A DNA stretch of 64,000 nt, from positions 123,620 through 187,619 of the forward strand of contig CAVTIJ010000007.1 of the NCBI GenBank assembly GCA_963734885.1. The letters run 5' to 3'. Source of the DNA: an uncultured Bacteroidales bacterium. Lineage in GTDB: Bacteria; Bacteroidota; Bacteroidia; Bacteroidales; VadinHA17. Below, in pieces: positions 11,078 to 62,155 of the stretch. Position 1 is the stretch's first letter. The number at the start of each line of letters is the position of its first letter. The position numbers and the translations under genes were made by a program. Under the pieces are notes generated by a model. That model did not search any database and was not told the DNA's origin. It saw only the letters and a program-made list of their open reading frames with translations.

Positions 11078-11197
11078 GCACACAAAGAATGCACAAAGGG
11101 CACAAAGTAGGGACGCAGCATTCTGCCTCCCAACAATAATATAGACCTTTGTGTACTTTGTGTTTTACCTTTGCGACCTTTGTGGTTAATGGATTTT
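11078..11197. repeat. CACAAAG/CTTTGTG palindromic intergenic element, copy 1
   Basis: Left arm has CACAAAG x3. A central hairpin lies at 11110-11131. Right arm has CTTTGTG/CTTTGCG x4, ending CTTTGTGGTTAATGGATTTT. Lies between convergent genes. Confidence 0.85.
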
Positions 11198-11206
11198 GAC
11201 TTTTAT

Positions 11207-13258
11207 TTACCAGATTACCGGCCTTTGTTCGGGCGCTCTGAAGAGTTTATCTCCGGGTTTAATTGTAGAGAATGCCGCATAAAATTCGGGCATGTTATAC
11301 ACAACACCATTTATCCTGACTTTAGCAGGCGAATGCTCGTCGGTTTTTACTCTTTTTCGTAACTCCGCATCTCGCATATTGGTTCTCCATATCTGCGCGT
11401 ATGAAAGAAAGAAACGCTGGGTATCAGTAAAACCGTCAATTGGTTTCGGCGTCTCTTTGCCTGCAAGAGACAATTTATATGCATTAAATGCAACTGTGGC
11501 ACCTCCCAGATCAGCAATATTTTCACCAAGGGTCAGCTTTCCATTCACAAAAGCGGAATCAAGAACTTCATAATGATTATACTGATCAATAAGAATTGCA
11601 GCCCGGTCTTCGAAAGCTTTTGAATCGTCCTTTGTCCACCAGTCACGTAGATTTCCGTCTTTATCGAATTGCCTGCCCTGATTGTCAAAGCCGTGGGTCA
11701 TTTCATGCCCGATGACCATTCCGATTGCGCCATAATTTACTGCATCATCAGCATCAAGATTGAAAAACGGAGGCTGTAATATACCGGCAGGAAATACAAT
11801 TTCGTTTTTATTTGGATAATAGCCTGCATTGACAGTTTGTGGTGTCATCCCCCACTCTTCACGGTCTACAGGCTTCCCTACTTTATTCATTTGATATCTG
11901 AATTCGAATGCCTGTGAGTTAAGCACATTCATGACATAGGAATCCGATGTAATCTCAAGACCTGAATAATCTCTCCATTTATTCGGGTATCCAACTTTTA
12001 CCCCCATTTTATCGAGTTTTGCCAGCGCTTCCTGTTTGGTCTGCGGACTCATCCATGCAAGATTCTCAATCCTCTGCTTCAGTGATGTTTTAAGGTTCAT
12101 CACCAGGGCTGTCATTCTTTCCTTCGCAACAGGCGGGAAGAACTTTTCTACATAAAGTTGACCTATCGCCTCCCCAAGAGAACCGCTGGTAGCATCAAGC
12201 ACCAGTTTCCACCTTGGCTCCATCTTCTCCTGTCCCGATAAAGTCTTATAATAAAAGTCAAAATTCTGATTTTCAAAATCTTTCGACAGGTAGCTTGCTG
12301 TGCTGTTTATAAGTTGCCATCTCAGGAAAGTTTTCCAGTCATCGACAGAAACAGACTTCATCATGTTTCCAAGCTCTTTAAAAAATCCGGGCTGATATAT
12401 ATTTATTTCCTTAAGATCAGGATAGCCGGCCTGTGTGAAGTATGCAACCCATTTGATATTTGGTGAAAGCTTATTCAGACCTGCTACTTCAAATTTGTTA
12501 TATGTCTTCTGAGGATCCTGGTTCTCAACATTGGAGAAAGATGCTCTGGCCAGCTGCGTTTCCATGTTCATGACTTTCTTTGCATTTTTTTCTGCAACAA
12601 CCGGTTCATCCTTCATCAGTTCAAACATTTTCGTCAGATGGATGAGGTATTTTTCCCTTATCTTTTTTGTTGATTCGTCGTTATTGAAATAATAATCCCG
12701 TTCCGGAAGTCCAAGCCCGGCCTGGTAACACTGTGCTATAACATTGTTGCTGTTCTTCGAATCCTGATTTGAAAAAAGATAGAAGAATGGGCTCATTGAA
12801 TAGCTCTGGAAAAATGCTGCTGTCATCTGAACATCATCAATAGTCTTGATAGCTTCAATCTTATCAAAAAATATTTTCAAAGGTTTAATACCCTGTTCTG
12901 CAATCTTAGCTGTATCCATTCCCGATTTATAGAATATACCGATCTTCTGCTTATTGCTGCCGGGAACCGAATCTCCTGAGGCAGCGGCATCAATTATTAT
13001 TTCCTTTATATTTTCTCTGTTCCTTTCAACAAGTTCGTCGAAAGCATCTTTGGAGTTTTTATCTGCAGGAATAGGATTATTCTTAAGCCATGAACCATTG
13101 ACATAAGCAAAGAAATCATCACCTGGCTTTATTGTAGTGTCCATGTTCTGAATATCGAAAGCCGGATATTTTTTCACTGGTTCAGCAGTTTTTTTTACAT
13201 TGCCCGTGCAACCCTGCAACAGTGCAATAGCAAGAATTCCGATTAAAAAATTTTTCAT
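11207..13258 (-). CDS. M13 family metallopeptidase (neprilysin/PepO-like), lipoprotein
   Basis: HEMTHGFD zinc motif, GENIADLGG, C-terminal CxxW-like RPVIW, and lipobox LLQGC. Confidence 0.9.
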   Translation of the reverse strand: MKNFLIGILAIALLQGCTGNVKKTAEPVKKYPAFDIQNMDTTIKPGDDFFAYVNGSWLKNNPIPADKNSKDAFDELVERNRENIKEIIIDAAASGDSVPGSNKQKIGIFYKSGMDTAKIAEQGIKPLKIFFDKIEAIKTIDDVQMTAAFFQSYSMSPFFYLFSNQDSKNSNNVIAQCYQAGLGLPERDYYFNNDESTKKIREKYLIHLTKMFELMKDEPVVAEKNAKKVMNMETQLARASFSNVENQDPQKTYNKFEVAGLNKLSPNIKWVAYFTQAGYPDLKEINIYQPGFFKELGNMMKSVSVDDWKTFLRWQLINSTASYLSKDFENQNFDFYYKTLSGQEKMEPRWKLVLDATSGSLGEAIGQLYVEKFFPPVAKERMTALVMNLKTSLKQRIENLAWMSPQTKQEALAKLDKMGVKVGYPNKWRDYSGLEITSDSYVMNVLNSQAFEFRYQMNKVGKPVDREEWGMTPQTVNAGYYPNKNEIVFPAGILQPPFFNLDADDAVNYGAIGMVIGHEMTHGFDNQGRQFDKDGNLRDWWTKDDSKAFEDRAAILIDQYNHYEVLDSAFVNGKLTLGENIADLGGATVAFNAYKLSLAGKETPKPIDGFTDTQRFFLSYAQIWRTNMRDAELRKRVKTDEHSPAKVRINGVVYNMPEFYAAFSTIKPGDKLFRAPEQRPVIW

Positions 13259-13343
13259 CGCTCATTTTAATTTTAATATTAGGATGCAAAAGTAATGTAA
13301 TATTCCGGATCAATTAATTGAATTTACAAATTGACAACCCTGG

Positions 13344-15782
13344 TTATCCCATTACAACTTTCACTTTATGCTCAGTCCCGGCTTTAAATACCGGAATAAG
13401 ATTTGATCCGTTTTTTTGACCATCAACCAGAACTTCCTTTACGCCTTTGGATTTTCCTCCCTGATTGATAACCTCAATATTATAGGTTGCCCCCCTGAAC
13501 TTCCTTACCGCTGTAAATCCTTTCCAGTCAGATGGAATACACGGATCAATTATTAATCCATCGTATTCAGGACGTATACCAAGCATAAATTGTGTTACAG
13601 CATAAAAATTCCATGATGCCGTTCCTGTTAGCCATGAATTCTTTGCCTCACCAGGTTTAAATGCCTCCTTCCCTGCCACCATCTGAGCATAAACATATGG
13701 TTCAGTCTTATGCAGATCACTTATTTCCTCGAGATAGGAAGGGCATATTTTTTTGTAATATTCCCATGCACGATTCCCGTTACCAACAACCGTTTCCCCA
13801 ATCATTATCCAGGGATTATTATGACAGAATACGCCTGCATTTTCTTTGTACCCTGCCGGATATGAAGATATCTCACCGTATTCAATATAATACTTTGTGA
13901 ACGCCGGGTTATTAAGCACTATGCCATATTTGCTGTCGAGCCTCTCCTTTACTGCATCAAGAGCTTTTGTGCAAAGACCCTCCTCTTTGCCGATCCCTGC
14001 CATGGTGCACCATCCCTGCGATTCAATAAAGATCTTGGATTCTTCATTTTCATTGCTCCCAATCTTCCGTCCATAATAATCATAGGCCCGGATAAACCAT
14101 TCGCCATCCCATCCATGTTTTTTTATTGCATCAACCATGGTATCAACAAGCTTCTGGGCACGGGCTGCCTCGACATTCTTCCCAAGTCTTTTGCACAGTT
14201 CAACATAATCGCGTCCATAAACAACAAAAAGCCCTGCGATCATCACAGATTCAGCTTTTGAACCTTCTGTTTTGTTTTCAGTTGTCTGGAAAGACTCATT
14301 TGGATCATTTGAGAAACAATTCAGGTTCAGACAATCATTCCAGTCAGCCCGGCCAATAAGAGGCAAGCCATGCGGACCCAAATTATTTATAACGTGATCG
14401 AACGAAACGGTAAGATGGTCGAAAAGACTTTTAGAACTTGAAATATCATTATCAAACGGAACCATTTCATCGAGTATTCCGAAGTCACCCGATTCCTTAA
14501 TATAGCTTGTTGTTCCGAGAATTAACCACAGAGGATCATCATTAAATCCTCCGCCAATATCATTGTTCCCTCTCTTATTCAGAGGCTGATACTGGTGATA
14601 GCAGCCTCCGTCAGGAAATTGGGTGGAAGCTATGTCAATAATGCGTTCACGGGCACGTTCAGGTATCTGATGAACAAAACCTGTAAGGTCCTGGTTGGAA
14701 TCGCGGAACCCCATTCCTCTTCCGATACCCGATTCAAAGAATGAAGCTGAACGCGAAAAACAAAAAGTGATCATGCACTGATACTGGTTCCAGATATTCA
14801 CCATCCGATCGACTTTATCATCCCCGGTGGCAACAGTATAAATGCTTAGAAGATTATCCCAGTATTTGTGGAGATCAGCAAGGGCGGCATCAACTTTCGC
14901 GGTAGTGTTGAACCTTGCAATGGTCTCTTTTGCCTTCTTCTTGTTAATTATATTCTTTGATTCCCATTTTTCGTCTTCTTTATTCTCAACATATCCAAGG
15001 ACAAAAATGAAGTCTTTTGATTCACCGGGCTTCAACTCTACTTCAATGTAGTGTGATGCAACAGGTGACCAGCCATGAGCTTCAGTGTTCTTTGGTTTGC
15101 CTTCCAAAACAACCTGAGGTTCGTCAAATCCATTATATAGTCCAAAGAAAGATTCACGGTCAGTGTCATATCCCTGAATCGGAACATTGACAGAATAATA
15201 GGCATAATGATCGCGTCTTTCCTTGTACTCTGTTTTATGATAGATAACTGATCCTTCAATTTCCACTTCACCTGTCGAAAAATTCCTCTGGAAATTTTCC
15301 ATATCGGCGGCAGCATTCCACAAACACCATTCAGTGAATGAAAATACCTTTATTTTTTTTGTTTTTTTGGAGCCATTCGTGAGTGTAAGCTTTTGAACTT
15401 CAGCCCATGTTTTCAGGGGAACAAAATATAGTACATTAGCCGTTATACCGTTCTTTTCTCCCTTAATATTTGTGTAATTCATGCCATGACGGCACTCGTA
15501 GCTATCGAGTTCGGTTTTACAGGGTTTCCAGCCCGGCGACCAGATATTCTCGCCATCATTTATATAGAAATACTTCCCGCCACTGTCCATGGGAACGTTA
15601 TTATACCTGTATCGGGTAATCCGGCGGAACTTGGCGTCCTTATAGAAAGTATAACCACCGGCTGAATTTGAAATGAGTGAGAAAAAATCCTCATTGCCAA
15701 GATAATTTATCCATGGCCATGGGGTTCGCGGATTAGTGATTACATACTCGCGGTTCTTGTCATCAAAATGCCCGTATTTCAT
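13344..15782 (-). CDS. GH94 cellobiose (or related beta-glucoside) phosphorylase
   Basis: 812 aa. N-terminus [29 protein letters not shown]...[14 protein letters not shown] closely recalls the cellobiose phosphorylase N-terminus. Confidence 0.85.
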
Positions 15783-15827
15783 AATGATTTCTTGTTTATT
15801 AATTTTTAGAGGAAGTATCTAATGCAA

Positions 15828-15941
15828 TTTTAACCACAAAGCACACAAAGAAGGCACAAAGGACACAAAGGCAAAACTTCTTAGAACTCACTTTGTGTTC
15901 TTTGCGTATTTACTTTGTGATCTTTGTGGTTGATGGATTTC
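15828..15941. repeat. CACAAAG/CTTTGTG palindromic intergenic element, copy 2
   Basis: TTTTAACCACAAAGCACACAAAGAAGGCACAAAGGACACAAAG, then a loop, then CTTTGTG x4 + GTTGATGGATTTC. The tail contains the TGA stop (15940-15942, minus strand) of the transporter gene. Confidence 0.9.
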
Positions 15942-17548
15942 ATTGTTTTGCAAGTTCGTTTTGCCTTCTGTTATTTAATTCAATTGTGATCTCATTCATT
16001 TTCTTTTGATTCAATGGATAGAGAGTCATAATTCCGGCGGCAATGAAAGTGATAATTGCAGGTATCCAGCTCATAAGCATTATTATGCCGGGTATAGCTC
16101 CTGCGATAGCCACTTCATCCTGTCCGTTATAATGGAACGACGCAAGAACAAAACCAATAATTGCTCCCGCAATTCCCCCTCCGAATTTTGTTGCAAAAGA
16201 GCCTGCAGAATAAACCAATCCGGTTGCTCTCCTGCCATTTTTAAATTCGGAATAGTCAGCAGCATCGCCAAGCATTGCAAAAAACAGTGTCGGGAATATA
16301 GCTGCACCAAACTCCGATATCAGGCCAATAGTGAAAATTGGTACAATATTTCCGGGACCACAAAAAACAAGCATCGCATTTACCGTACCTGAGAAAATGA
16401 GAGCATATATGAACAGATTACGTTTCCCGAAGCGCTTGCCTAGCGGAGAGGTTATCATCGCTCCCGCTATTGAAGCAAGCATCAATCCAACCATAAAAGA
16501 TGCTGCCAGCAGCTGGTTATGCAGATAATGCGAGAAATAGATCACTACGATTCCCTGTTTTATGGAATTGTAAACATTGAAAAGCATTCCGATTACCAGA
16601 AGTACGATCCAGGGTCTGTTTCTGATAAGATCTTTCAGATCTTTACCCAGATTTGTTTGCTGTTCTTTTGGAGGCTGGACGCGTTCTTTAGTTGCCGTAA
16701 ACGTAAGGATCATCAAAAGGGATAAGAAAAATGACAGAAGATAAATTGCGTTGCTATAGCCTTTTTTCTGGTCGATGATTGTCAGCTTTTTTGCCACCAG
16801 GTTTTCTTCTCCCGATACCATAAATGTGTATTCCTTTTTCGCTTCCATAGAAAAAGCTTTTTCCCTTTGTAGGAATATTCACACTATCGGCTACTCCCGG
16901 GTTAACCCAGGTAAACATCGCGATCCCGTCCTTGGTCTTGATGTTCACATTTTTGACATCCTTCAATGTCGATACCGTAACATTATACTTATTCGAGTCA
17001 ATCTTAGCGACAGCAATTGAAGGATTTATATTACCAAAATTGGCTACTAAGAACAGCAAAGCTCCCTGAACCAGCATCCCGCCGGTAAAGGCGCCAACCA
17101 TACGATAGGAGCCCAGACTGGTGCGTTCCTTATCGTCGCCTGTCATTACAGCCATCAATGCCCCGTAAGGGATATTATTTGCTGTATAAAGAATAAAAAA
17201 TATCAGGTAAGTAGCATAGGCATATATTATTTTCCCTGTCGGACCAAGATTGGGTGTAGTAAACAACATCGATAATGTAACACCCAGAGGGATCGCCGTC
17301 CATAAGATCCAGGGACGAAATCTTCCGTACTTCGAATTTGTTCTGTCGCAGATTATGCCCATTGCCACATCGATTACTCCGTCACTTAACCGGGCAATTA
17401 ACATCAGCAATCCCACTGCTGCGGGATTGATTCCAAAAACATCGGTATAAAAAATAAACAGAAATGTGGCCACACCACGCCATGCAATATTAGCGGCGCC
17501 ATCGCCGAGTGCATAACCAATTTTTTCCTTAAGGGATAGTTTTTCCAC
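15940..17548 (-). pseudogene. GPH-family (glycoside-pentoside-hexuronide:cation) MFS symporter, frameshifted, with ~90-aa insert between TM5 and TM6
   Basis: ORFs 16754..17548 and 15940..16848 form one GPH-like protein (GYALGDGAAN, DRTNSKYGRFRPW). The frame changes within A5/T5 runs at 16849-16870. Confidence 0.7.
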
Positions 17549-18971: not shown

Positions 18972-19086
18972 GAAATCCATTAACCGCGAAGGTCGCAAAG
19001 AAAATTTCGCAAAGGTCGCAAAGAACTGAATAATAACGTTTTGACTTTGCATACTTTGCAACTACTTTGCGTGCTTTCGGTTAAAA
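18972..19086. repeat. palindromic intergenic element, copy 3 (inverted orientation, CGCAAAG/CTTTGCG variant)
   Basis: GAAATCCATTAACCGCGAAGG, CGCAAAG x3, then CTTTGCA x2, CTTTGCG and CTTTCGGTTAAAA. Confidence 0.85.
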
Positions 19087-19184
19087 ATGATTCTTTCAAA
19101 ACACCTAATTGGGTATCCTTGATGAAATTAATGGTAAACTGAGAATTTATCCCCTTTAGGAGGGCAGGGGGCCGATCAGGGTTT

Positions 19185-22250: not shown

Positions 22251-22253
22251 GCA

Positions 22254-46041: not shown

Positions 46042-46095
46042 CTTTGTGTCCTTTGTGTAAATTACTTTGTGTTCTTTGTGGTTAAAGGATTTCAT
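46042..46095. repeat. palindromic element, copy 8 (right arm only)
   Basis: CTTTGTG x4 + GTTAAAGGATTTCAT, 15 nt after the receptor's stop. Confidence 0.8.
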
Positions 46096-49817: not shown

Positions 49818-49913
49818 CCTTTGTGTACCTTCGTGTTAACCTTTGTGTTCCTTTGTGGTAAAAAAATCCATTAACCACAAAGTAACAAAGTAAAAAACAA
49901 AGTAACATAAAGG
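49818..49913. repeat. palindromic element, copy 10 ('inside-out': CTTTGTG arm, tail, then ACAAAG arm)
   Basis: CTTTGTG/CTTCGTG x4 + GGT, then AAAAAAATCCATTAACCACAAAG, then (T/A)AACAAAG x3. Confidence 0.8.
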
Positions 49914-50446: not shown

Positions 50447-50952
50447 ATGAAAGAAATAGCGGCTATAATACTTGAAAATGATAAAGGTGAATTTTTACTT
50501 TATCTGCGTGACAATAAACCGGGTATACCCTTCCCCAATCACTGGGATCTCATTGGCGGTCATGTTGAAGAAGGCGAAACCCCGAAGAGGCTCTTGTCCG
50601 TGAAGTGAAAGAAGAACTGGATATCGATCTGAAGGAATACGCTTTTTATAGAAAGTATGAATGCCTGACAGGAGATGCTTATGAAAATATAAAATATATC
50701 TATACCGGCAGGATTAAACTTCCTATCGAAAAAGTAACCTTGTTGGAGGGAGTCCGTCCTCAATATTTTACAAGAGAAGAAATTCCACATGTAAAATTTG
50801 CAAACATCCTGAAATCAATCGTAATGGATTATATTAATGAACCCGACAGAATCAGGCAGAATCAAGTGCATCTTGATTATACACTGCCTTCTTTGTTAAA
50901 ATATTTTGGTGAACCTTTGTGTCTTGGTGTCTTGGTGGCAATTATTCGTTAA
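50447..50952 (+). pseudogene. NUDIX hydrolase, one frameshift in a C4 run
   Basis: GGHVEEGETP / EEALVREVKEELDI Nudix box, split at 50580-50583. The last ~15 codons are encoded by repeat copy 11. Confidence 0.7.
50887..50945. repeat. palindromic element, copy 11 (degenerate, right-arm type)
   Basis: CTTCTTTGT..., CCTTTGTGTCTTGGTGTCTTGGTGG. Overlaps the 3' end of the NUDIX ORF. Confidence 0.45.
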
Positions 50953-50963
50953 TACGTTTTATC

Positions 50964-52737
50964 TTGAAAAGTTATCGAAAAACCGACCAATACCTTCTTC
51001 CTAAAGTGAAGCCTTTGAACTCAAAGGGTAGTTATGATATCTCCCCGACTTATAAACTCGATGATGAATAAAATTGCTTCAGGATTCGAATCATTGGCTC
51101 TTGCTAATATCCAAACATAAGATTATAATTATCGATGGTTATATAGGTGTTTTTTATGATCAATTCCAAGAAGAAACTGGAAGAACATCTGAAAAATCTT
51201 GGCAAAAAAACTTCATGGAAATCAACAAGTGATTTTTAAAATCTTCCTGATATATTATCGGAGATTGTTTCACCATTTACCGGCGGCGATGATCCTGTTT
51301 TCGGGTACCGGACGACTATGAATCTCGAGGATTTTTTCGATTTAAATGCTTTGAAAAAAAGCACAATTGATAATGAATCTGATATAAATATTCTGATAGG
51401 TCCCGGCGCATCACTTGCTGGTTGGAAAGGGTTATTAGTTTATATAGATATCCCGAAAAATGAAATACAATTCAGATCACAGGGCCGCGAAGCATCACCA
51501 ATCTTGGTGCTGTCATCATCCTGCTGATCCAAAGGAGATGTATAAGCGATTTTATTTTGTTGACTGGATTGTACTGAATAAACACAAACAAAATATCTTC
51601 CCCGGCATAGATATAATTGTAGATGCACAAAATCCTGCAAATCCGTCATGGATGACGGGAGATACGTTTGAGAAGGTCCTTATCAGAAATGTGTCAGACT
51701 TCATTCAGAGTAAGACCGTGGTTTGAGCCTGGCGTTTGGGGAGGGACCTGGATAAAAGACCATATTGGAGGACTAAACCCGATGTTCCTAATTATGCATG
51801 GTCATTCGAATTAATTGTCCCGAAAATGGCCTCCTTTTTGAAAGCTCCGGAAAACTTTTAGAAGTCTCATTTGACTTTCTGATGTACCAGGAAGCAAAAA
51901 ATATTCTGGGTGATTGTTTCGAACGATTTGGAACTGAATTCCCGATAAGATTCGATTTCCTTGATACTTTCGATGGAGGAAATCTTTCGGTACAATGTCA
52001 TCCACGACCAGATTACATTAAAAAGCATTTTGGAGAAAGTTTCACCCAGGAAGAAACCTACTACATACTTGATACTAAAGATAACGCTGTTGTGTATCTT
52101 GGATTTCAGGACAATATAGATCCGACAGAATTCAGAAATGTTCTTGAAGAAAGCCATGCAAAATAAAGCAATCCGGTTCATATTGAGAAATATGTACAGA
52201 GACACCGGGCTTCAAAACATGACCTGTTTCTGATACCTTATGGTACCATTCATGGATCGGGTAAAAACAATCTTGTTCTTGAAATAAGTTCCACTCCATA
52301 TATATTCACTTTCAAAATGTATGACTGGTGCCGTCTGGATCTCGATGGAAAGCCTCGTCCGCTGAATATAAACAGAGGAATGGAAAATTTGTATTTCGAC
52401 CGGAAAGGCTCACATGTAAAGAAAGAACTTAAATCTGCTCCGATTCTCATCGGAGAGGGCAAGGATTGGCAGGTTTATCATTTACCGACTCACGAAACTC
52501 ACCTGTATGATGTCCATAGGTTGAAATTTCAGAAATTCTATTGAAGTTAAAACTGAAAACAAGTGTCATGTTTTGAGCCTGGTTGAAGGGAGTAGTATTA
52601 TTGTCGAAACAGGAAATGGCAAATCTCACCGATTCAACTACGCGGAAACATTTGTGATCCCTGCCGCTGCCGGGAGTTACAGAATAATTAATGAATCGGC
52701 TGATGTGGCAATGGTCGTAAAGGCATTTGTTAAATAA
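50964..52737 (+). pseudogene. class I mannose-6-phosphate isomerase (long form), heavily disrupted
   Basis: Fragments in all three frames: ...[17 protein letters not shown]..., ...[22 protein letters not shown]..., ...[25 protein letters not shown]..., ...[16 protein letters not shown].... At least 6 frame changes plus an in-frame TAA at 52164-52166. The 5' boundary is approximate. Confidence 0.6.
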
Positions 52738-52772
52738 CATCACGCTCCACTGGAACGAGATATTGAATTAAT

Positions 52773-52965
52773 GGAACCCCTCCGGGGTTCTTTAAATCTT
52801 TCCTTGTATATTTATTCTGGTATTTGTGGAACACCTCCGGTGTTCAAAATCACGTTTTCAGAACTTAGGCGGAAAGACAAACGATGCAAACTATAGAACC
52901 GCAGAGCGGTTCCATAAATAATAGCAGGAAACCCGATAGTGAACATAGAACCTCGGAGAGGTTCC
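52773..52965. repeat. four covarying hairpins GGAAC-NNN-TCY-N'N'N'-GTTC (two per orientation)
   Basis: 52773-52790 GGAACCCCTCCGGGGTTC; 52828-52845 GGAACACCTCCGGTGTTC; 52896-52913 and 52948-52965 are reverse complements of GGAACCGCTCTGCGGTTC and GGAACCTCTCCGAGGTTC. Confidence 0.8.
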
Positions 52966-52986
52966 ATTATTAAAAATCTTAACATC

Positions 52987-55900
52987 ATGAAACGATTCTT
53001 CTCTTTCATATTCGTCATTTCTCTCATTATAGGCAATTTAAATGCCCAATCATTCCTCTCTGACGATGACTACCTGATCAACGGTTATGCAAGAAAAATC
53101 TCCGGTCTGGATTATGACTATCAATCATGCATACCCGGTTTGCGCGAAAGTATGCTGGTCAGGGCACTGAATGGCAAGGATTTTATGGAATGGGAAACTG
53201 ATCCGGTTCCGGTGCATATCACTAAAAAATATGCGACGTTTATCTGGGTTGCGGCTCTCGGATCAAGTCCGGGAAAATCAGAGATGGTTTTGAATCTGAA
53301 CGGCGATCAGAATTACACTTTTTACACCGATGGACAGCGACATTGGGAAGTAAAAAACCCCGACGGTTCCTCTTTAACTTTTAATTCAATTATGGTTGAC
53401 CAGAATGGTGACAATCATGGATATATGATATTAAGAATTCCAGGTTCAAAGCTGATTTCAGGTAAGTCCTTTAAAGTTAAAAATAACCGGGGGTCAGAAT
53501 AATCTTACATCATGGTATATGACATTTAAAAAAGAGGTCAGAACCGGCGTAACTATGAATGCCTTCCCGGCAATATTGAAAAAGGGATCTGCACGTCTTC
53601 AACTTATAGAACTTGGAGTTTTTTATTTCGGAAAGGAAGGTGATGCTAAAATATATGCAGATGGCAGATTTCTTGAAAACGCCGCCCTGAAATTCGGTTA
53701 TAATTCAATAAACGTTGGATTACAACCCGTCACTGAAGCCACCCCTATTGAACTGAAAGTTGTAGCATGGTGACATTACAATGCGAAAAAGCGTTGTCCT
53801 CGATCCGGTAAGAAAATGGGATATAAAATTGATTCAGCATACTCATACCGACATAGGTTACACCAGATCGCAAACAGATATCCTTGCAGAACATCTGAGA
53901 TACATTGATTATGCTCTTGATTATTGTGATGCAACGGATAATTATCCCGACAATGCTAAGTTCCGATGGACCTGCGAAGCGTCATGGCCGGTAGATGAAT
54001 ATCTGAAATGCAGACCTGCAGGCCAGATTGAACGTCTGATTAAAAGGATAAAGGAAGGCCGAATTGAAGTTACCGGCATGTATTTCAATTTTGATGAATT
54101 ACCCGATGAAAAAATCCTTGCTGCATCTCTTGCAGCATTGGGCAGGATCAGGGAAAAAGGGATACCTGTTTCCCTGGCAATGCAGGATGACGTAAACGGC
54201 ATTGGCTGGTGCCTTAATGATTATTTCAATCAGGTGGGTGTGAAATATCTGAACATGGGCACCCATGGACATCGTGCATTGATCTGCTTTGATAAACCAA
54301 CTATGTTCTGGTGGGAATCGCCGTCGGGAAAACGACTTCTTACTTTCAGAGCCGAACATTATATGACCGGGAACACCGTTCTGGAAATGCAATCGGGAGA
54401 TATCGACCGTTTTAAAAGAAACCTGATGAACTATCTTATCAGTCTCGATGCCAAAAAATATCCATATGATGAAATGGCAATTCAGCATTCAGGGTACCTG
54501 ACAGATAATTCACCTCCATCAACAATTGCCAGCGATCTTGTAAAACAATGGAATGAGATGTTTGAATGGCCAAGATTGTCAACCTCCACTGCTGAGACAT
54601 TTTTCAGCGATATGGAAAGAGATCACGGAGGTGAATTCCCTGTAATAAGAGGTGCCTGGCCCGATTGGTGGACAGATGGATTTGGCGCCTCAGCCCGGGA
54701 AACAGGAACAACACGCCTCGCATCTTCTTTGCTTACTGCAAATGAAGCCGGACTAACAATGGCTTCCATAGCAGGAGTTAAACTACCAGATGATATAAAA
54801 TATAGTATCAGTCTTACAGATAATGCATTATTGTTTTATACCGAACATACGATGGGTTATTCTGAGAGCGTAAGGGAACCACTCAGTCAGCCCACAATGG
54901 AGCAGCGCGCCCTCAAAGAATCGTACGCATGGGAAGCAAACAGGAGGGCAGCTTCAATTGGTGAAGAAGCAATGGGATTGCTGCAAAGCAGATTTAACCG
55001 CGAACCACAACCATCATTAATTGTATTTAATACACTTAATTGGAAACGATCTGGTCTCGCAAAAGTATATATTGACCATCAGATTATTCCCAGGGGCAAA
55101 ATTGCCGGAATATATGATCACGATGGCAACAGACTACCCGTTCAGGCAATTGAAAGTCGCTCGGATGTCACAGAATGGGCTATATGGTTAAATGATGTGC
55201 CTGCTTTCGGTTATAAAAAATATACTATAAAAGCCATCGACGAACAGGCATCAGAAAATCTTTATGGTAAAACGTTAGAGAACAAATGGTACAAAATAGT
55301 TACAGATCCATTGAAAGGGACAATAACATCATGGTACGATAAAGACCTTGGTACGGAACTTCTCGATCAGGGGAATAAATATAGAATGGGGGAATTCATC
55401 CTTGAGCAGCTTGGAAACAGGTCGCAGATGGAAAGCCACAGGCTTGATGATTTCAAACGATCTCCGTTAGATACTGTATGGTTCGACTCAATGACAAGAG
55501 GAGAAATATGGAACAGTATAAGATTTTATGGTGAATCGTCAACTTCAGAAAAACCGCAGAGGATTCATGTTTGAAATAAGGCTTTTTAATACTGACAAGC
55601 GTCTCGACCTCGCTTGTTCAATAGTAAAAAAGGACATTGTCTCTCCTGAGAGTTTTTATATAGCTTTCCCGTTCATGGTAAAGGACGGAAAACATTTTAC
55701 CGAAGTGCAGGGAGGAGTAATCGAAGCAGGAAAGGATCAGATAAAAGGATCATCAAACGACTGGTATACAGTTCAGGATTTCACTTCAGTCAAAAATGAT
55801 GTGTCGCAAATTATAATCGGCTGTCCAGAGATGCCTCTTATGCAGCTTGGCGCAATAAATACCGGCAGATATATTGCAGGTGCCTTGCCCAGAGTACAAA

Positions 55901-56351
55901 CCTGTTTTCATGGCCAATGAATAATTATTGGGTGACGAACTTCAATGCTGATCAGCGCGGAGGACATTCCTGGACATATTATCTGACAAGTTCCAGTGAT
56001 AACTCAACAGGTTTTGCAACGGAATTCGGCTGGGGATGCCGTATTCCCTATTTAACCAGAATCCTTCCGGGATCGGGAAAAGGCGACAATAACTGGGAGG
56101 GTTCCTTTATCAGCGGATGGCCTTCAAATATTCTACTGGTAAGCGCAGAACCCGAGACTGACGGAAAATCATGCATTATTCATTTGCGGGAAATAAACGG
56201 GAAATCGGCTTCAATTGATCTTATTAACGGGGTGAACAACAAAAGTCTGAAAGCAGTTGAAGTTGATGTTACCGGAAAAACACTCGAAAATCAGTCCTTG
56301 AAGATCAATCCCTTTGAATCAAAGTTTTTCAGGATTATTTTTGCTCCATGA
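52987..56351 (+). pseudogene. GH38 alpha-mannosidase with N-terminal accessory domain, four frameshifts
   Basis: Signal peptide at MKRFF. IKLIQHTHTDIGYT is the GH38 catalytic motif, and WPDWWTDG and MNNYWVTNF are also present. Frame changes occur near 53480-53484 (A run), 53765-53770, 55549-55553 (A run) and 55887-55895. Confidence 0.7.
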
Positions 56352-56369
56352 CAATCTAAAATTACAACT

Positions 56370-56726
56370 ATGCTTACTTACCATGAAACGGGTAAATTTA
56401 AAATTGCCGAAGTTGAAGACTTGAATTTCCTGATCTCTGAACCCCAGGACGTTCTTGACCTCATGGGTGATGCCGTGTCTGAGAACTGCAGCAGGATGAT
56501 AGTGCAGGAAAGGAACCTGAATCCTGATTTTTTCAGGCTTCAGACCGGATTAGCCGGAGAGATCCTTCAGAAATTTTCAAATTATAGTTTCAAGCTGGCG
56601 ATAATTGGGGATTTCGAAAAATATAAAAGTAAAAACCTGCAGGATTTTATGCGGGAAAGCAATAAGGGAAACAGGATATTCTTTGTCAGTACCCATGAAG
56701 AAGCTTTAATGAAATTGATGATTTGA
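56370..56726 (+). CDS. DUF4180-like protein
   Basis: 118 aa. The pattern ...LNPDFFRLQTGLAGEILQKFSNYSFKLAIIGDF...ESNKGNRIFFV is recalled from DUF4180. Confidence 0.55.
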   Translation: MLTYHETGKFKIAEVEDLNFLISEPQDVLDLMGDAVSENCSRMIVQERNLNPDFFRLQTGLAGEILQKFSNYSFKLAIIGDFEKYKSKNLQDFMRESNKGNRIFFVSTHEEALMKLMI

Positions 56727-56799
56727 AAAGGCTTTGCAAAATCGGTAATGCCCAATTTTTGGATGTTCTACTTCCTTCCAAATCGATTTTATATTCGAC

Positions 56800-56950
56800 T
56801 TTTTTTACCACAAAGGAACACTAAGGTAAATCATTAAGGTACACAAAGGAGTTTCTGAATCTTATATGGAATCAGAATCAATCTACAAGATCTTTTGTGA
56901 CCCTTTGTGTATCCTTCGTGACCCTTTGTGGTTAATGGATTTCAATTTTT
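56800..56950. repeat. CACAAAG/CTTTGTG palindromic intergenic element, copy 12
   Basis: TTTTTTTACCACAAAGG...ACACAAAGG, a central TTCTGA(A)T...ATCAGAA hairpin, then TTTTGTG, CTTTGTG, CTTCGTG, CTTTGTGGTTAATGGATTTCAATTTTTT. Lies between convergent genes. Confidence 0.85.
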
Positions 56951-56984
56951 TTCAATATTGCCTCATTCGATGTCCGGAGGAACT

Positions 56985-57854
56985 TTATTTATAATCTTCA
57001 TCCCTGGCTTTCAAAGACAGGAACCCTTTTGGCATTGGCGATTCAACTGTTACCATTTTCCCTGTTGATGGATGCGGAAAAGATATAGAAAATGCATGAA
57101 GCCTGACACGCCTGACAAACTCTTTGGCGGCTCCATATTTCCAATCACCCACAATTGGACATCCGATATCTGATAAATGAACTCTTATCTGGTTTTTACG
57201 GCCTGTTTCGGTTCTAATATCCAAAAGAGTATAATTATCAATATTTCTTATTGTCTTATAATGAGTTATGGCTAGTTTAGCATTTGGAGATTCCTTTACG
57301 GAATGCATCTTCTGGGTATGATCCTCCGCAAGCCAGCTTTGGATTGTTCCTTCGGGATTTTCGGGAACACCTTCAACTAAAGCATAGTAATGTTTTTCTG
57401 TTTCATCCCATTTGTCCTTTATTGTATCCATCACAGCTTCAGATTTAGCGAATATCAGAACACCCGACACTTCCTTATCGAGCCGGTGAACAACGTAAGT
57501 CCTTACGGTTCCTTTACTCTTTTCCTTCAGATACTCTGAAATTGTCCACTGGATATTTGCGCTTCCATCGATGCTGGATGTAGCAATCCCTGCAGGTTTG
57601 TCAATCACTATCATTTCCTGATCATCATATAATACCGGAAAAGGCAGACTGATTTTTGTAATAGTGCTTGCCTTCATGCTAAAGTCGACTGAATCACCGG
57701 GTCTTAATGAATATGAATGCAGTGTAACAGGCTTATTATTCACTTTTACGGTTCCACTCTGAAGAAGCTTTTTTATTCGCGTCTTCGGAGAATCAGGGTA
57801 CTGTTCAAACAGAAATTCGAGTAAAGCCTGAGGTTTATTTATTGTTATTTTCAA
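56985..57854 (-). CDS. RluA family pseudouridine synthase (with N-terminal S4-like domain)
   Basis: HRLDKEVSGVLIFAKS catalytic motif and GRKNQIRVH. Confidence 0.9.
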   Translation of the reverse strand: MKITINKPQALLEFLFEQYPDSPKTRIKKLLQSGTVKVNNKPVTLHSYSLRPGDSVDFSMKASTITKISLPFPVLYDDQEMIVIDKPAGIATSSIDGSANIQWTISEYLKEKSKGTVRTYVVHRLDKEVSGVLIFAKSEAVMDTIKDKWDETEKHYYALVEGVPENPEGTIQSWLAEDHTQKMHSVKESPNAKLAITHYKTIRNIDNYTLLDIRTETGRKNQIRVHLSDIGCPIVGDWKYGAAKEFVRRVRLHAFSISFPHPSTGKMVTVESPMPKGFLSLKARDEDYK

Positions 57855-57948
57855 GTAGTTGCATTTAAATTATTTATCGGCCGAAGTTATGAAAAAATAA
57901 GATTGTTTTTGGATTCCGATCAGGAGTCGTTTGATAATATCTTTTCTA

Positions 57949-58076
57949 CACGCAAAGTAAGCGCAACCTTCGACAAACTCAGGGTGAGTGCGCGAAGGCT
58001 GGGATTAATAAATTAGTTCTTTGTGACCTTTGCGTAAAATCTTTGCGACCTTTGTGGTTAAATGAATTTCAAATTT
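57949..58076. repeat. palindromic element, copy 13 (mixed CGCAAAG/CTTTGCG units)
   Basis: Left arm has CGCAAAG, GCGCAACC, GCGCGAAGG. Right arm has CTTTGTG, CTTTGCG x2, CTTTGTGGTTAAATGAATTTCAAA. Lies between divergent genes. Confidence 0.7.
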
Positions 58077-58123
58077 TAAAAAAAGTTGTATCTTTTATAC
58101 ACAATTTTAAGGCTACATTTATC

Positions 58124-58786
58124 ATGAAAATACGCGCAATTATTACCGGTGTAACAGGAATGGTTGGCGAAGGTGTGCTGCATGAAGCCCTTCAGCATCC
58201 CGATGTAGAAAAAGTTCTGGTAATTAACAGGAGACCATGCAAGGTTTTTCATCCAAAATTGACAGAGATCCTGCATACCGATTTTTTTAATCTTGATTCA
58301 ATAGCTGATCATATGACGGGATATAATGCATGTTTTTTTTGCCTTGGAATATCATCTGTTGGTATAAGCGAAGAAAAATACTACTCTTTGACATATACGC
58401 TTACGATGAATATGGCTGAAATCCTGGCAAAACATAATCCTGAAATGACATTTTGTTATATATCAGGTGCAGGTACAGACAGTACCGAAAAAGGCAGACT
58501 AAACTGGGCACGGGTAAAAGGCAAAACAGAAAACGAGCTTATGAAACTGCCGTTTAAAAAGGTTTTTGCTTTTCGACCGGGGTTTCTGCAACCCACTAAA
58601 GGTCTGAAGAATGTCCACAGGTTTTATGGGATATTTGTATTGTTATATCCTGTTTTCAGATTTCTGATGCCGAAATATGTTTCAACGTTAAAGGAATTAG
58701 GTCTGGCAATGATCAATGTAGTTTTATTTGGTTATGATAAATCAGTTATTGAAGTCAGGGATATTCTTTTGCTGTCAAAAAAATGA
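58124..58786 (+). CDS. NAD(P)H-binding (atypical SDR/epimerase-like) protein
   Basis: MKIRAIITGVTGMVGEGV Rossmann motif. The 58043 start in the ORF track lies in repeat copy 13 and is rejected. Confidence 0.65.
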   Translation: MKIRAIITGVTGMVGEGVLHEALQHPDVEKVLVINRRPCKVFHPKLTEILHTDFFNLDSIADHMTGYNACFFCLGISSVGISEEKYYSLTYTLTMNMAEILAKHNPEMTFCYISGAGTDSTEKGRLNWARVKGKTENELMKLPFKKVFAFRPGFLQPTKGLKNVHRFYGIFVLLYPVFRFLMPKYVSTLKELGLAMINVVLFGYDKSVIEVRDILLLSKK

Positions 58787-58804
58787 TCGTGACCGGTCAC
58801 ACAA

Positions 58805-60331
58805 TTATTTCATAACCTTCCTGAGAATACCAAATACCCCCCTTATAAATGTGGCACTGGTAAGAACTTTTACCATTTCATCCTGAGGAGATCTGCTGGT
58901 TGCACTTCGATAAGTCGTTTGTCTGGGAGCCCGCTGTTGATCCTTTTGAACCACCTCATCAGCTTTAACTTTAGCAACACCTTCAACTTTTCTGCTTAGA
59001 ATTTCATAAGCACTATCCCTGTCTATGGTCTCGATATATTTTTTAACCAGATCTGAAGAAGAATTAATTGATGTGATCTCATCCGCGGTCAGAATATCCA
59101 TTCTGCTCACCGGAGTACGGAGCATTGTCGCAGCAAGGGGTGTCGGAATGCCCTTTTCATTTAGAGCTGTTACTAATGCTTCACCAATTCCCAGATTCGT
59201 AATTGCCTCGTCTGTTTTATAATATTCTGAAACAGGATAGTTCTCAGCAGAAAGCTTAATCGCCTTACGGTCAATAGCAGTAAAAGCCCTTAATGCATGT
59301 TGAACTTTAAGTCCAAGCTGAGCAAGAACGCCATTTGGTACATCCATTGGATTTTGAGTCACAAAAAAGATTCCTACACCTTTGGAACGAATGAGCTTAA
59401 CGATATTTTCTATCTGGTCAAGCAGTGCTTTGCTTGCCTGATTAAAGATCAGATGTGCTTCATCGATGAAAATAACAAGTTCAGGTTTTTCAACATCACC
59501 TTTTTCGGGCATCTGGTTGTAAACCTCAGCGAGGAGAGAAAGCATAAATGTCGAGAAGAGTTTTGGCTTATCCTGAATATCTGTAAGACGTATGATACTG
59601 ATATAGCCATTGCCATTTTTATCCCGCCTCATAAGATCTCTTATGTCAAACGACCGTTCCCCAAAGAAAAGGTCAGCCCCCTGCTGCTCCAGCTCAAGGA
59701 TCTTACGCAAAATTATCCCGGTTGTGGCGGTCGAAATTTTTCCGTAGTTCTTCTCAATGTCAGATTTTCCTTCTTCTGTTACATATTGTGTAACTTTCTT
59801 CAAATCTTTAAGATCAAGCAATGCCAGCTGATTATCATCACAATATTTAAATATCACGGCAAGCACGCCTTCCTGGGTATCATTCAAATCGAGAATTCGT
59901 GCAAGCAAAACCGGTCCGAATTCAGAAACTGTCGCCCTTAACCTCACACCTTCCTGTTTCGAAAGCGACATCAGTTCAACCGGAAAACCCTTTGGCGAAA
60001 ACGGAATATTAATTTTAGAATGTCTTTCAAGAATAAAAGGTTTTGATTCTCCGGGCTTTGCAACTCCGCTTAAGTCACCCTTGACATCCATCAGTAAAAC
60101 CGGTATTCCTTTCTCAGATAACTGTTCAGAAATAACCTGCAAGGTTTTGGTCTTACCCGTACCGGTTGCCCCGGCAATCAATCCATGTCTGTTCATCGTT
60201 CTTAAGGGTATTTTCACCTGGGCTTTTGCAACTGGCTGACCTTCGAGCATTGCGCATCCCAGTAAAATACTGTCTCCATTGCATCCATAGCCGTTTACAA
60301 TATATTCTGCAAATTTTTCTTTTTTATCCAT
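58805..60331 (-). CDS. DUF853 / HerA-like P-loop ATPase (YjgR family)
   Basis: RHGLIAGATGTGKTKT Walker A, VIFIDEAH Walker B. The ~500-aa size and N-terminus resemble the YjgR family. Confidence 0.8.
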   Translation of the reverse strand: MDKKEKFAEYIVNGYGCNGDSILLGCAMLEGQPVAKAQVKIPLRTMNRHGLIAGATGTGKTKTLQVISEQLSEKGIPVLLMDVKGDLSGVAKPGESKPFILERHSKINIPFSPKGFPVELMSLSKQEGVRLRATVSEFGPVLLARILDLNDTQEGVLAVIFKYCDDNQLALLDLKDLKKVTQYVTEEGKSDIEKNYGKISTATTGIILRKILELEQQGADLFFGERSFDIRDLMRRDKNGNGYISIIRLTDIQDKPKLFSTFMLSLLAEVYNQMPEKGDVEKPELVIFIDEAHLIFNQASKALLDQIENIVKLIRSKGVGIFFVTQNPMDVPNGVLAQLGLKVQHALRAFTAIDRKAIKLSAENYPVSEYYKTDEAITNLGIGEALVTALNEKGIPTPLAATMLRTPVSRMDILTADEITSINSSSDLVKKYIETIDRDSAYEILSRKVEGVAKVKADEVVQKDQQRAPRQTTYRSATSRSPQDEMVKVLTSATFIRGVFGILRKVMK

Positions 60332-60612
60332 TGTCTGAAATATTTAATCGTTTTGATCAGAAATTGCTTTCGCAAGTTACCAGATTATTAGAAATTTATT
60401 GTCGCTCTCTTCCCAATTAATTTGAACATCGATACATTTGGATGGTTCCGAATTTATGTATAACTTCGGTTACGGGAAATATCGAACAATCAGAAGTATA
60501 GCGGATTGATCCTCGGGATATTTTTAACGTTTGTTAAACAAAAAATACAAAACAGGTGTTTAATAATCACAAGGATGCAGTTTGCACCCTGAATAACTTA
60601 AACCATATTTAA

Positions 60613-61548
60613 ATGAAAAGAAAATTCTTTACAGTTGCATTATTGTTTGCAGTATTCACCGGTATTGCATTTGGACAAATCACTGATGCTGAAAAAAAAT
60701 TAAGGACACAATCTGCTGATACAGTCACCGGGTGGAAAAAAGGAGGGATTTTTTCCGCCAACCTTGCACAGACGTCACTTACAAATTGGGCAGCTGGAGG
60801 TCAGAACTCATTTGCAGCCAATGGTCTTCTCAGCACTTTTGCCAATTACAAAAAAGATAAAACTACGTGGGCAAACTCATTGGATATCGGCTATGGACTG
60901 CTTAAGCAGGGAAACACTGGCTATCAGAAAACCGATGATAAATTCGATCTGGTGTCAATCTACGGATATAAAGCTTTCAAGAATTTCTATTACTCCGGCC
61001 TTTTGAATTTCAAAACACAAATGGCTCCCGGTTACAAATACCCTGATGTAACTACAAAAATTTCCGACCTGTTTTCTCCGGCGTATTTTCTGGTAGCTCT
61101 CGGACTTGACTATAAACCAAATGACCATTTTAGCGCTTTTATTGCTCCACTGACGCTGAGAATTACTATCGTAAATGACAAAGCTCTTTCTGATGCAGGA
61201 GCATTTGGAGTAACCCCCGGCAAAAAGTCGCTAAGTGAGTTCGGTGGATACATACGTGCAATCTATACAAGGAATGATTTCAAAAGCGAGCTTCTGAAAA
61301 ATGTCACCTTTACAACAAAGGTTGATCTGTTTTCCGACTATACTCACAACCCACAAAATATTGTTGTAAACTGGGAAACTCTTCTGGCGTTTAAAATAAA
61401 TAAATTTCTTGCAGCGAGTATAAATACCCAACTCACTTATGATGACAAAATAAAAATCCCGGTGATCCGAAACGGAGAAGCAACCTCTATTGGCTCTTTA
61501 GTTCAATTTAAAGAGATCCTCGGAGTAGGTTTATCCTATAAATTTTAA
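60613..61548 (+). CDS. DUF3078-like outer-membrane beta-barrel protein
   Basis: Signal peptide, TNWAAGGQNS motif, alternating beta-strand pattern, C-terminal YKF. Confidence 0.55.
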   Translation: MKRKFFTVALLFAVFTGIAFGQITDAEKKLRTQSADTVTGWKKGGIFSANLAQTSLTNWAAGGQNSFAANGLLSTFANYKKDKTTWANSLDIGYGLLKQGNTGYQKTDDKFDLVSIYGYKAFKNFYYSGLLNFKTQMAPGYKYPDVTTKISDLFSPAYFLVALGLDYKPNDHFSAFIAPLTLRITIVNDKALSDAGAFGVTPGKKSLSEFGGYIRAIYTRNDFKSELLKNVTFTTKVDLFSDYTHNPQNIVVNWETLLAFKINKFLAASINTQLTYDDKIKIPVIRNGEATSIGSLVQFKEILGVGLSYKF

Positions 61549-61577
61549 AATATGATTATTAACAAAAAACGAATATT

Positions 61578-61979
61578 ATGAAATTAGCTGATGAGTTTAA
61601 GGCTTTTGCAATGAAAGGCAATGTCGTTGACATGGCTGTTGGTATAATTATCGGAGCAGCATTCGGGAGAATTGTTTCTTCGCTGGTAGGTGACATCATA
61701 ATGCCTCCTCTCGGATTGCTGATAGGCGGCGTCAATTTTACTGATCTGAAAGTAGTATTGAAATCAGCCATAGATGCCACTCACCCCGCCGTTACCTGGA
61801 ATTATGGGAATTTTTTGCAGGTGACTTTTGATTTTCTAATTGTTGCTTTCGCTGTTTTTATGGTTATTAAAGCAATTAATATCGCAAACAGAAAGAAAGC
61901 AGAAGCACCACCTGCTCCCCCGGAACCTACAAAAGAAGTTGTTCTTCTTTCAGAAATACGTGATTTGCTGAAAAAATAA
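61578..61979 (+). CDS. mscL: large-conductance mechanosensitive channel
   Basis: [41 protein letters not shown] is the canonical MscL N-terminus. Confidence 0.95.
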
Positions 61980-62056
61980 CAGCTTTTCTTCTTAAGTCCC
62001 TGGGCTAAAGGCCTTTTAACTGGCTCAAGGATACTAAGTTAAATATTATATTTCAA

Positions 62057-62155
62057 ACCTTTGTGAGCTCCGTGAAAAGCCAGGCTGAAGTCTGGCATAT
62101 TCGCTAATATGGGATACGGTTATTTCTTTAGGATCGGGTAGCTGATGGATTTCGA
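62057..62155. repeat. palindromic element, copy 14 (degenerate)
   Basis: CCTTTGTGAGCTCCGTG, internal CCAGGCTGAAGTCTGG hairpin, then ...GGTAGCTGATGGATTTCGAC tail. Confidence 0.45.

Follow-up and report, generated by a model that had tools for sequence, protein, structure and literature searches.

What are the palindromic elements that crowd the intergenic regions of an uncultured Bacteroidales bacterium of the VadinHA17 lineage, and by what means could they have spread? The question is raised by a stretch of 64,000 nucleotides (contig CAVTIJ010000007.1 of assembly GCA_963734885.1, positions 123,620 to 187,619), referred to here as the window. An initial annotation had counted at least 14 copies of an element built from arrays of the heptad CACAAAG and its complement CTTTGTG, had suspected mobility, and had been unable to match the copies to a named family of repetitive extragenic palindromes (REPs), bacterial interspersed mosaic elements (BIMEs) or MITEs (miniature inverted-repeat transposable elements). 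The window copies share arms, arm spacing and both termini with longer cassettes, in which such arms bracket a gene of the GxxExxY family, and a close relative of the window organism carries such a cassette.

Heptad arms in the window and around the GxxExxY gene

The window contains 56 exact heptads, about 7-fold more than dinucleotide-preserving shuffles (8.3 +/- 2.7), and 9 occurrences of a 19-nt tail, CTTTGTGGTTAAWGGATTT, with at most three mismatches, where 0.04 are expected. A typical arm consists of four heptads at spacings of 9, 11-14 and 9 nt, CACAAAG on the left and CTTTGTG on the right, and the centre between the arms varies from 10 to 70 nt in the window copies. The positions of the heptads bear out the cluster coordinates and the architecture described initially. 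The left arms of the 15.8, 33.0 and 39.3 kb copies do differ at 1-2 positions, and small nested hairpins are present in the centres. Beyond the outer heptads, a 5-nt extension of the palindrome (TTAAC...GTTAA) forms the commonest class (47 of 110 elements), and the window subfamily ends in AAATCCATTAACC on one side and in GGTTAA followed by an A/T run on the other. Folded as single strands, the copies form extended hairpins with interruptions (z-scores of -2.3 to -6.4 relative to shuffled sequences). All window copies lie outside the crude open reading frames (ORFs), and 107 of 113 copies in a larger sample are intergenic, in agreement with the intergenic location noted at first. Full copies occur between convergent (12), tandem (22) and divergent (10) genes, as had also been claimed, and show no orientation bias.

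Genes enclosed by such arms were found in a scan of 185,579 species-representative genomes, in which the tail pattern matched at least 90 stretches. Within this tail-anchored sample, left and right arms enclosed no genes other than two syntenic ORFs of 123-125 residues (loci L025 and L038), and a third homologue abuts a copy. The two ORFs belong to the GxxExxY family, with 139 bits to TIGR04256 and an E-value of 3e-38 to PF13366 (PDDEXK_3). The full cassette reads (AAATCCA)TTAAC, four C-R-C-N-R-A-G heptads, the 125-residue GxxExxY gene, four complementary heptads and GTTAA.

The association of arms and gene was then quantified in 80 loci obtained by a metagenome scan with an alignment of proteins of the L025/L038 type. 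Under a strict arm pattern, requiring a left array within 120 nt upstream and a right array within 150 nt downstream, the left array was present at 58 of 77 GxxExxY genes, the right array at 63 of 76, and both at 49 of 73. Only 3 of 162 control ORFs in the same loci were bracketed (Fisher p = 1.5e-28 for this comparison with 49/73). The genes that were not bracketed mostly carry other heptad variants, such as CACAAGG, CACAAAT and CACAGTG. Seen from the arms, 45 left...right pairs have a centre of 200-1600 nt, and 41 of them enclose a GxxExxY gene. Among annotated genomes, the bracket occurs in Bernardetia (Cytophagia), Bacteroides finegoldii, Gemmatirosa (Gemmatimonadota), Sphingomonas (between fabD and fabG), Anaerolineae and an Ignavibacteria genome (between lexA and ogt), and it spans at least five phyla. 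Both neighbours of the gene share its orientation in 32 of 46 loci.

The relation of the window copies to these cassettes was assessed with a profile hidden Markov model (nhmmer) built from 56 arms flanking GxxExxY genes in unrelated metagenome contigs, with the window sequence excluded. The profile matched 12 of the 14 sites listed initially, at 11.1, 15.8, 19.0, 27.3, 33.0, 39.3, 39.97, 46.0, 48.6, 49.8, 56.8 and 58.0 kb, with E-values from 2e-4 to 9e-11. The two degenerate copies, 50887-50945 and 62057-62155, gave no match at E<10, and their membership in the family is plausible but unsupported. Conversely, two CTCTGTG-variant arms (Table 1) and a scar at about 50417 had escaped the first listing. 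The window arms also show the arrangement seen in the cassettes, with 3-4 C-R-C-N-R-A-G heptads, spaced 9/11-14/9 nt and inverted. One cassette, L172, stems from a genome with a 95%-identical GH94 protein and reads AAATCCATTAACC-(CGCAAAG)4-14 nt-ATG...GxxExxY...-(CTTTGCG)4-GGTTAAGTTTTTTTT. It carries both termini of the window copies, with the tail on the upstream side of the gene. When the ORF is removed from the cassette, gene-less copies align with it from end to end at 72-79% identity. Because no GxxExxY ORF lies between their arms and their centres are short, the window copies are classed as gene-less derivatives and not as cassettes.

Upstream of the cassette, the tail sequence AAATCCATTAA(C) was seen twice (L172, 3905-3950; also L092-L094 and L096), and one of these copies supplies the final codons and stop of the host ORF upstream. 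The doubled sequence might reflect duplication of a target, might be left over from an older element, or might be the source from which the tail arose.

As for the protein itself, members with 35-62% identity share E27, D67, E77, K79 and Q91 without exception, and the nuclease looks active. The structure was modelled with a predicted local distance difference test score (pLDDT) of 93.5 using a diverse alignment (46.8 with a shallow one). Among solved structures, the closest folds are those of Cas4 SSO0001 (E 9e-4), lambda-exonuclease-like enzymes, tRNA-splicing endonuclease and Hjc, with modest TM-scores. Searches of the Protein Data Bank (PDB) by sequence and by profile returned no solved structure for the family, and PADLOC gave only a weak similarity to the Cas4-like core. 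Based on these folds and searches, the protein is predicted to be a minimal PD-(D/E)XK nuclease without a close solved relative. The family is large (31,856 clusters at 50% identity, E<=0.001) and includes members of about 275 residues with two tandem GxxExxY domains (P0348-P0357 and others), a fusion that suggests a dimer. Openly searchable papers mention GxxExxY, PF13366 or TIGR04256 only in annotation lists with the function given as 'unknown', and neither the searchable, non-subscription literature nor Rfam yielded an earlier description of the arm-gene bracket or of any GxxExxY function.

Distribution and insertion polymorphism

Confinement of the repeats to the window would have pointed to an assembly artefact, but the family was found across many other genomes. 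Among the matches of the tail-pattern scan that were listed, nearly all came from uncultured Bacteroidales of fens, peat and soil, and 3 came from Anaerolineae. The heptad family is not an artefact and occurs in dozens of uncultured Bacteroidales genomes and in some Anaerolineae. The arm pattern had 0 matches in 2.9 million viral contigs. The lack of a named family has also held: Rfam gave no window match at the gathering score or at E<=5 and none at the gathering score in 20 related loci, and no match to the heptad elements was found by sequence or topic in openly searchable papers. In the three Anaerolineae loci (L043, L050 and L082), the element occupies what appears to be one orthologous site, between a stop codon and a gene starting MAKITMREA. 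Since the tail GGTTAAAGGATTT lies 5-8 nt before the ATG there, its AAGGA could be a ribosome-binding site.

Closely related genomes allow filled and empty sites to be compared. The window GH94 protein is 95% identical to that of the metagenome-assembled genome MFD05705.bin.1.174. Copy 15828-15941 fills the junction between the MFS_2 and GH94 genes, and the same junction measures 13 nt in L091 and 11 nt in a JGI contig. L091 is a 22.4-kb locus from the 95%-identical relative, of which about 14 kb aligns to window 11.2-25.1 kb at 78-86% nucleotide identity. No arm was detected in L091 at E<=0.01, and the aligned stretch of the window has three copies. Another relative, L072, carries a copy at a place that is occupied in the window by no more than a 37-nt spacer. 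Two multi-gene segments of the window, 50840-56986 (about 6 kb) and 57901-62271 (about 4.4 kb), are absent from L072 or replaced there, at L072 positions 1765-1798 and 2713-3553, and both are edged by heptad elements on both sides. The 6-kb segment has the run 50915-50937 at its left and copy 56800-56942 at its right edge, and the 4.4-kb segment has copy 57950-58068 at its left and candidate 62057-62155 at its right edge. At one orthologous intergenic site, three species carry three different heptad variants. The suspected mobility is borne out by this presence/absence polymorphism at orthologous sites: gene-less copies have been gained or lost between close relatives, and the window repeats are recent insertions.

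A difference of another kind was observed between two samples of one species (L181 and L182, downstream of the P0336 gene), which differ by a tandem duplication of a gene-less hairpin beside the cassette.

Individual copies and accompanying repeats

The copies and remnants in the window are collected in Table 1. The heptad composition varies in the scanned copies, with CGCAAAG, CACAGAG, CGCAGAG and CACTAAG as variants, and a second arrangement consists of the right arm, GGTTAATGGATTT, a T-run with ACC, and the left arm.

Table 1. Heptad elements and remnants in the window, with E-values of matches to the cassette-arm profile
Feature	Position	Strand	Details
Full gene-less copy	11076-11197	+	Left arm 11081-11107 (3 heptads), right arm 11147-11184 (4 heptads); tail GGTTAATGGATTT at 11185-11197; E 2.4e-4, 2.8e-9; DNA fold z -4.6
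Full copy	15809-15941	+	4+4 heptads; tail variant GGTTGATGGATTT overlapping the MFS_2 stop codon; outer-repeat remnant on head side; E 8e-9, 5e-7
Full copy, CGCAAAG variant	18973-19087	-	Inverted, tail 18973-18991; outer-repeat remnants; E 1e-8, 0.09
Solo right arm, 3 heptads	27336-27380	+	End GGTTAAAAA, without TGGATTT tail; E 3e-7
Right arm, CTCTGTG variant	31940-31985	+	E 0.004
Weak remnant	32488-32511	+	Two CTCTGTG heptads; E 0.007
Full copy with tail	33014-33111	+	Left arm 4 heptads, short centre, right arm 3 heptads; E 2e-9, 0.011
Left arm with truncated right arm	39318-39401	+	4 and 2 heptads, without tail; E 4e-8, 0.006
Solo left arm, 3 heptads	39971-40006	+	Outer-repeat remnant GGAGGTGTCGAAAAAGCC before arm; E 4.5e-7
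Solo right arm, 4 heptads, with tail	46041-46092	+	Tail GGTTAAAGGATTT; 15 nt past the stop codon of a TonB-dependent receptor gene; E 7e-9
Copy with decayed left arm	48460-48599	+	Right arm 48551-48587, tail; E 2e-6
Tail-to-tail 'form B' unit	49818-49912	-	Right arm, GGTAAAAAAATCCATTAACC, decayed left arm; tail motif on minus strand, 49864-49882; E 2.6e-10; z -5.5
Degenerate run, membership unsupported	50915-50937	+	CTTTGTG, CTTGGTG, CTTGGTG at 8-nt spacing; no profile match
Full copy with tail	56800-56942	+	CACTAAG inner heptads; E 6e-7, 2.5e-7
Left-arm remnant with 4-heptad right arm	57950-58068	+	Tail variant GGTTAAATGAATT; E 9e-11
Very degenerate candidate, membership unsupported	62057-62155	+	One exact heptad, GATGGATTTCGAC tail-like end; no profile match

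Copy centres also harbour other small palindromes. The middle of the 11.1-kb copy is occupied by a canonical REP-like hairpin with a GTAG tag, GTAGGGACGCAGCATTCTGCCTCCC (11107-11131), and 'double-foot' GTAG REPs, GTAGGGTCACGCCATGGCGTGACCCTAC, follow the M13 peptidase gene in relative L091 (about 14590-14720). Together, the nested hairpin and the REPs of the relative indicate that the heptad elements exist alongside a second REP family of the classical type. The centre of copy 48460-48599 contains the hairpin ACCACCTCCGCGGAAGCTTCGGTGGT (48483-48508), which recurs in copy centres elsewhere (L019, L086), and unrelated palindromes were found nested in the scanned loci, further examples being TCCCGATAGCTATCGGGA, CTGCCTGCCGGCAGGCAGG and CCCAACCGAAGCGTTGGG. 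The 58.0-kb copy carries a nested insert, CCTTCGACAAACTCAGGGTGAG (57966-57990), with a counterpart, CCTTCGACAAGCTCAGGGTGAGG, inside a copy in L026; the two apparently belong to a further family of small repeats with element centres as its targets.

Many full copies are surrounded by an extra outer inverted repeat, GAGGCTGTCTCAAAAGTC...GACTTTTGAGACAGCCTC (seen at L081, L070, L026, L077, L065, L056, L068, L073 and L074), remnants of which lie in the window at 15809-15827, 39296-39317 and 39948-39970. The same outer repeat was also observed around a different inner array, CACAGAG (L009, L073). A separate repeat of about 65 nt, GCCACCCCTGCAGTCTGGCCACTGCGCTAAAATAGCCCACCGGGCTATTTCTTAACGCTTGTGCCC, lies in or next to heptad elements of fen Bacteroidales (L012, L024, L061, L063, L016) and possibly also at window 62080-62110.

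The genes of the window are those of an ordinary Bacteroidota chromosome with a G+C content of 34-42%, and include GH94 cellobiose phosphorylase, M13 peptidase, MFS transporters, TonB-dependent receptors and HerA. No transposase, integrase, REP-associated tyrosine transposase (RAYT) or GxxExxY gene was present among the 60 window ORFs scanned, and no tRNA or tmRNA gene was found in the window. The solo arms at 39.97 kb (left) and 46.04 kb (right) were considered as ends of a 6-kb 'composite transposon', an idea that was rejected, the genes in between being ordinary (Polysacc_synt, VIT1, TonB-dependent receptor). Several genes look split or truncated (15940-17548, 30042-31024, 38193-39287 and 47977-48453). 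MFS_2 is represented by two ORFs in the window and by one 534-residue gene in the relative, RsgA and GH130 by two ORFs each, and PRAI lacks its N-terminal third. These genes are either pseudogenes or the result of indel errors in long-read assembly.

Possible origin and propagation of the elements

The REP/BIME/MITE-like reading of the initial annotation is supported; the gene-carrying parent form had lain outside its view. Like REPs, BIMEs and the hairpin-forming REP doublets (REPINs) that are associated with RAYTs (TnpA-REP, HUH Y1) in 'REPtrons', the heptad elements are palindromes present in many copies in intergenic DNA, and their inverted arms are conserved while the spacer varies. As for REPINs, singletons, head-to-head and tail-to-tail dimers and mosaics exist, and copies are polymorphic between relatives. 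The REPtron has a further parallel in a small nuclease-type gene that lies within the same repeats and appears vertically stable (PMC3116915, PMC3733652, PMC6006769). However, a REP unit is a self-complementary hairpin of 20-40 nt whose foot bears a conserved GTAG or CGTC tag (PMC3733652, PMC6006769), whereas the heptad arm is a direct array of four heptads that is not self-complementary and lacks such a tag. The associated gene is a PD-(D/E)XK nuclease instead of an HUH Y1 transposase, no Y1 gene being among the scanned window ORFs, and it is multi-copy per genome in many lineages. The REPs listed for the Bacteroidetes RAYT subclass 2.6 were also inspected and show no resemblance to the heptad arms.

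MITEs are comparable in being short and non-coding, with terminal inverted repeats, internally periodic repeats, intergenic dispersal, presence/absence polymorphism and a longer gene-carrying relative with the same ends. The heptad elements appear to differ in that the product of their gene-carrying form is no known transposase and in that no consistent target-site duplication was detected. The intervening sequences of 23S rRNA in Coxiella and Leptospira contain an ORF for the S23p four-helix bundle in a stem of terminal inverted repeats (PMC4990558). They resemble the cassettes in having an ORF of about 120 residues and unknown function within inverted repeats able to form a long stem, and they are regarded as selfish, with an unknown mechanism of mobility and transcription from host promoters (PMC4990558). 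Unlike them, the heptad elements lie between protein-coding genes, carry another ORF family and have heptad-array arms; Rfam detected no rRNA in the window. Intergenic direct repeats of heptamers such as TAACTGA are known from Beggiatoaceae, Cyanobacteria and some Bacteroidetes (PMC4679880). They are likewise short one-heptamer arrays, often just upstream of start codons, with a patchy occurrence across phyla, but they are contiguous tandem repeats of another sequence without inverted arms or a bracketed gene.

Considering these comparisons, we are inclined to regard the elements as gene-less, non-autonomous, MITE/REPIN-like derivatives of GxxExxY cassettes that would be propagated in trans by the cassette nuclease. 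Each heptad would act as a DNA recognition module, with modules separated by roughly one helical turn and grouped as two pairs in each arm. The modules would most simply be read by the cassette's own nuclease, as a dimer or higher oligomer, which would cleave a synapsed or extruded palindrome at its TTAAC/GTTAA borders or close to them. Short copies with retained arms could then be mobilized by it, and gene-carrying copies would stay put and be inherited vertically within host operons. Effects on transcripts through mRNA hairpins would be secondary. It is a more tentative and on present evidence doubtful proposition that GxxExxY and its heptad arms constitute an unrecognised mobile or self-propagating class, in which a minimal PD-(D/E)XK nuclease, instead of an enzyme of the HUH, DDE, serine or tyrosine type, would read the heptads and drive the spread of gene-less palindromes; such a class would amount to an independently evolved partnership of the REPIN-RAYT type in many bacterial phyla.

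Several observations weigh against propagation by the cassette nuclease. No consistent direct repeat was found beside 110 elements that would represent a target-site duplication; one clean filled/empty pair permits an AT-rich duplication of about 8 nt, which is not compelling. A GxxExxY homologue was not detected in the window by tblastn. One identical cassette protein was found on 24 contigs, and a search for several genomic contexts of it was dropped, as a single context was found throughout; the cassettes therefore look vertically stable and not recently mobile. A distant homologue in Prevotella nigrescens (L177; NZ_CP082843.1, 415326-415751) is accompanied by direct, not inverted, arrays of ACAAATC/ACAAATA, which lie within a leader of about 70 nt; this leader recurs ahead of the next gene. 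The nuclease is a bare 125-residue domain without a separate DNA-binding domain, and its binding and cutting of the heptads are putative. Finally, the nested palindromes mark the centres as insertion hot spots, and for that reason the GxxExxY gene could be a guest and not the driver.

This last point leads to the question whether an independent REP-like repeat is spread by a RAYT or by another host or transposon enzyme, the GxxExxY genes being guests in exposed centres. The several unrelated palindromes in the centres, including the canonical GTAG REP at 11107-11131, and the canonical GTAG REPs in the genome of the relative speak for such an origin, as do the large excess of gene-less copies over cassettes, the positional stability of the cassettes and the bare nuclease domain. 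Against it, the bracket extends across at least five phyla with heptad variants that track protein clades, and GxxExxY is the only family found within the arms (41/45 arm pairs, compared with 3/162 control ORFs). The arms also lack the hallmarks of RAYT substrates, namely the self-complementary unit and the GTAG/CGTC tag, and the scanned window ORFs include no RAYT, transposase or integrase. We consider this origin unlikely. Less probable again are cis-acting host signals in RNA or DNA that are maintained as such, for instance terminators acting in both directions, hairpins that stabilise mRNA, insulators of operons that RNase III would process, or controls of translation. In favour of such signals, stable hairpins are formed (z -4 to -6), many copies lie just past stop codons, T-rich sequence follows the tail, and cassettes lie within operons co-oriented with their neighbours, so that both arms would be transcribed; moreover, RNase III cuts the 23S rRNA intervening sequences that have an ORF in their stem (PMC4990558). 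The stops at 33013, 46026 and 48453 to which the initial annotation had pointed do exist, but there is no preferential placement after stops, and the hinted link to termination did not hold up. No 3'-end or orientation bias was seen in the flank counts given above, an A-run and not a U-run follows the hairpin in the sense direction, and terminator-like sites are not in excess, a single partial site (the solo left arm at 39.97 kb) having such a score; a terminator function was accordingly rejected. The copies are dispensable, since they are absent at orthologous sites of close relatives.

The pairing of the arms bears on the same alternative. When the two arms of one cassette are compared, Watson-Crick complementarity reaches 90.5% at heptad positions but only 35% in the 2-nt spacers. 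Compensatory pairing specific to a hairpin register was rejected, as the arm-to-arm agreement is uniform across the whole element. G.T and A.C mismatches between arms are balanced (14 vs 11) and therefore give no sign of selection on one RNA strand, so that a signal from an asymmetry of G.U over A.C was likewise rejected. Conservation of the arms thus concerns the heptad sequences and not an unbroken stem, and the pattern would fit heptads read on DNA about once per helical turn and would suit a conserved RNA stem less. Conserved heptads with unconserved spacers, about one helical turn apart, could also be arrays of binding sites for a nucleoid-associated or regulatory protein of the host, comparable to the IHF and gyrase sites in BIMEs, that were spread passively. 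This we regard as very improbable, because several heptad variants occur in one genome and even at one orthologous site, and both the bracket around one gene family and the insertion polymorphism would be left unexplained.

The core sites of integron attC elements have the form RYYYAAC...GTTRRRY. The termini TTTTAAC...GTTAAAA resemble them, the elements are imperfect palindromes of 90-140 nt, similar in length to attC sites, with ends of the AAC...GTT type, and the small promoterless gene is co-oriented with its neighbours as in an integron-like gene cassette. That the elements are solo or loosely clustered attC sites is nevertheless scarcely credible: the match to the core sites is imperfect (1-2 mismatches), the ORF lies inside the palindrome and not between successive sites, and the copies are single and dispersed between housekeeping genes instead of being arrayed beside an integrase, of which none was found among the 60 window ORFs. 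The four-heptad arm also has no counterpart in the R/L-box layout of attC. None of the alternatives explains the specific bracket across phyla as simply as descent of the elements from GxxExxY cassettes.

For the biology of the host, the elements make up a visible fraction of the intergenic DNA in abundant Bacteroidales of soil and peat, mark sites at which gene order has changed between relatives, and occupy operons such as fabD-fabG and lexA-ogt; for these reasons they matter for annotation, for assembly and for models of operon expression. For the uncharacterised GxxExxY family, whose members occur in many phyla, the cassettes provide a testable role, and the specific and easily synthesised DNA motif allows a direct biochemical assay. 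If propagation of the elements by the cassette nuclease is true, it would constitute a second, independent case of a vertically inherited nuclease gene that maintains a population of short palindromes, with a fold different from that of the RAYTs.

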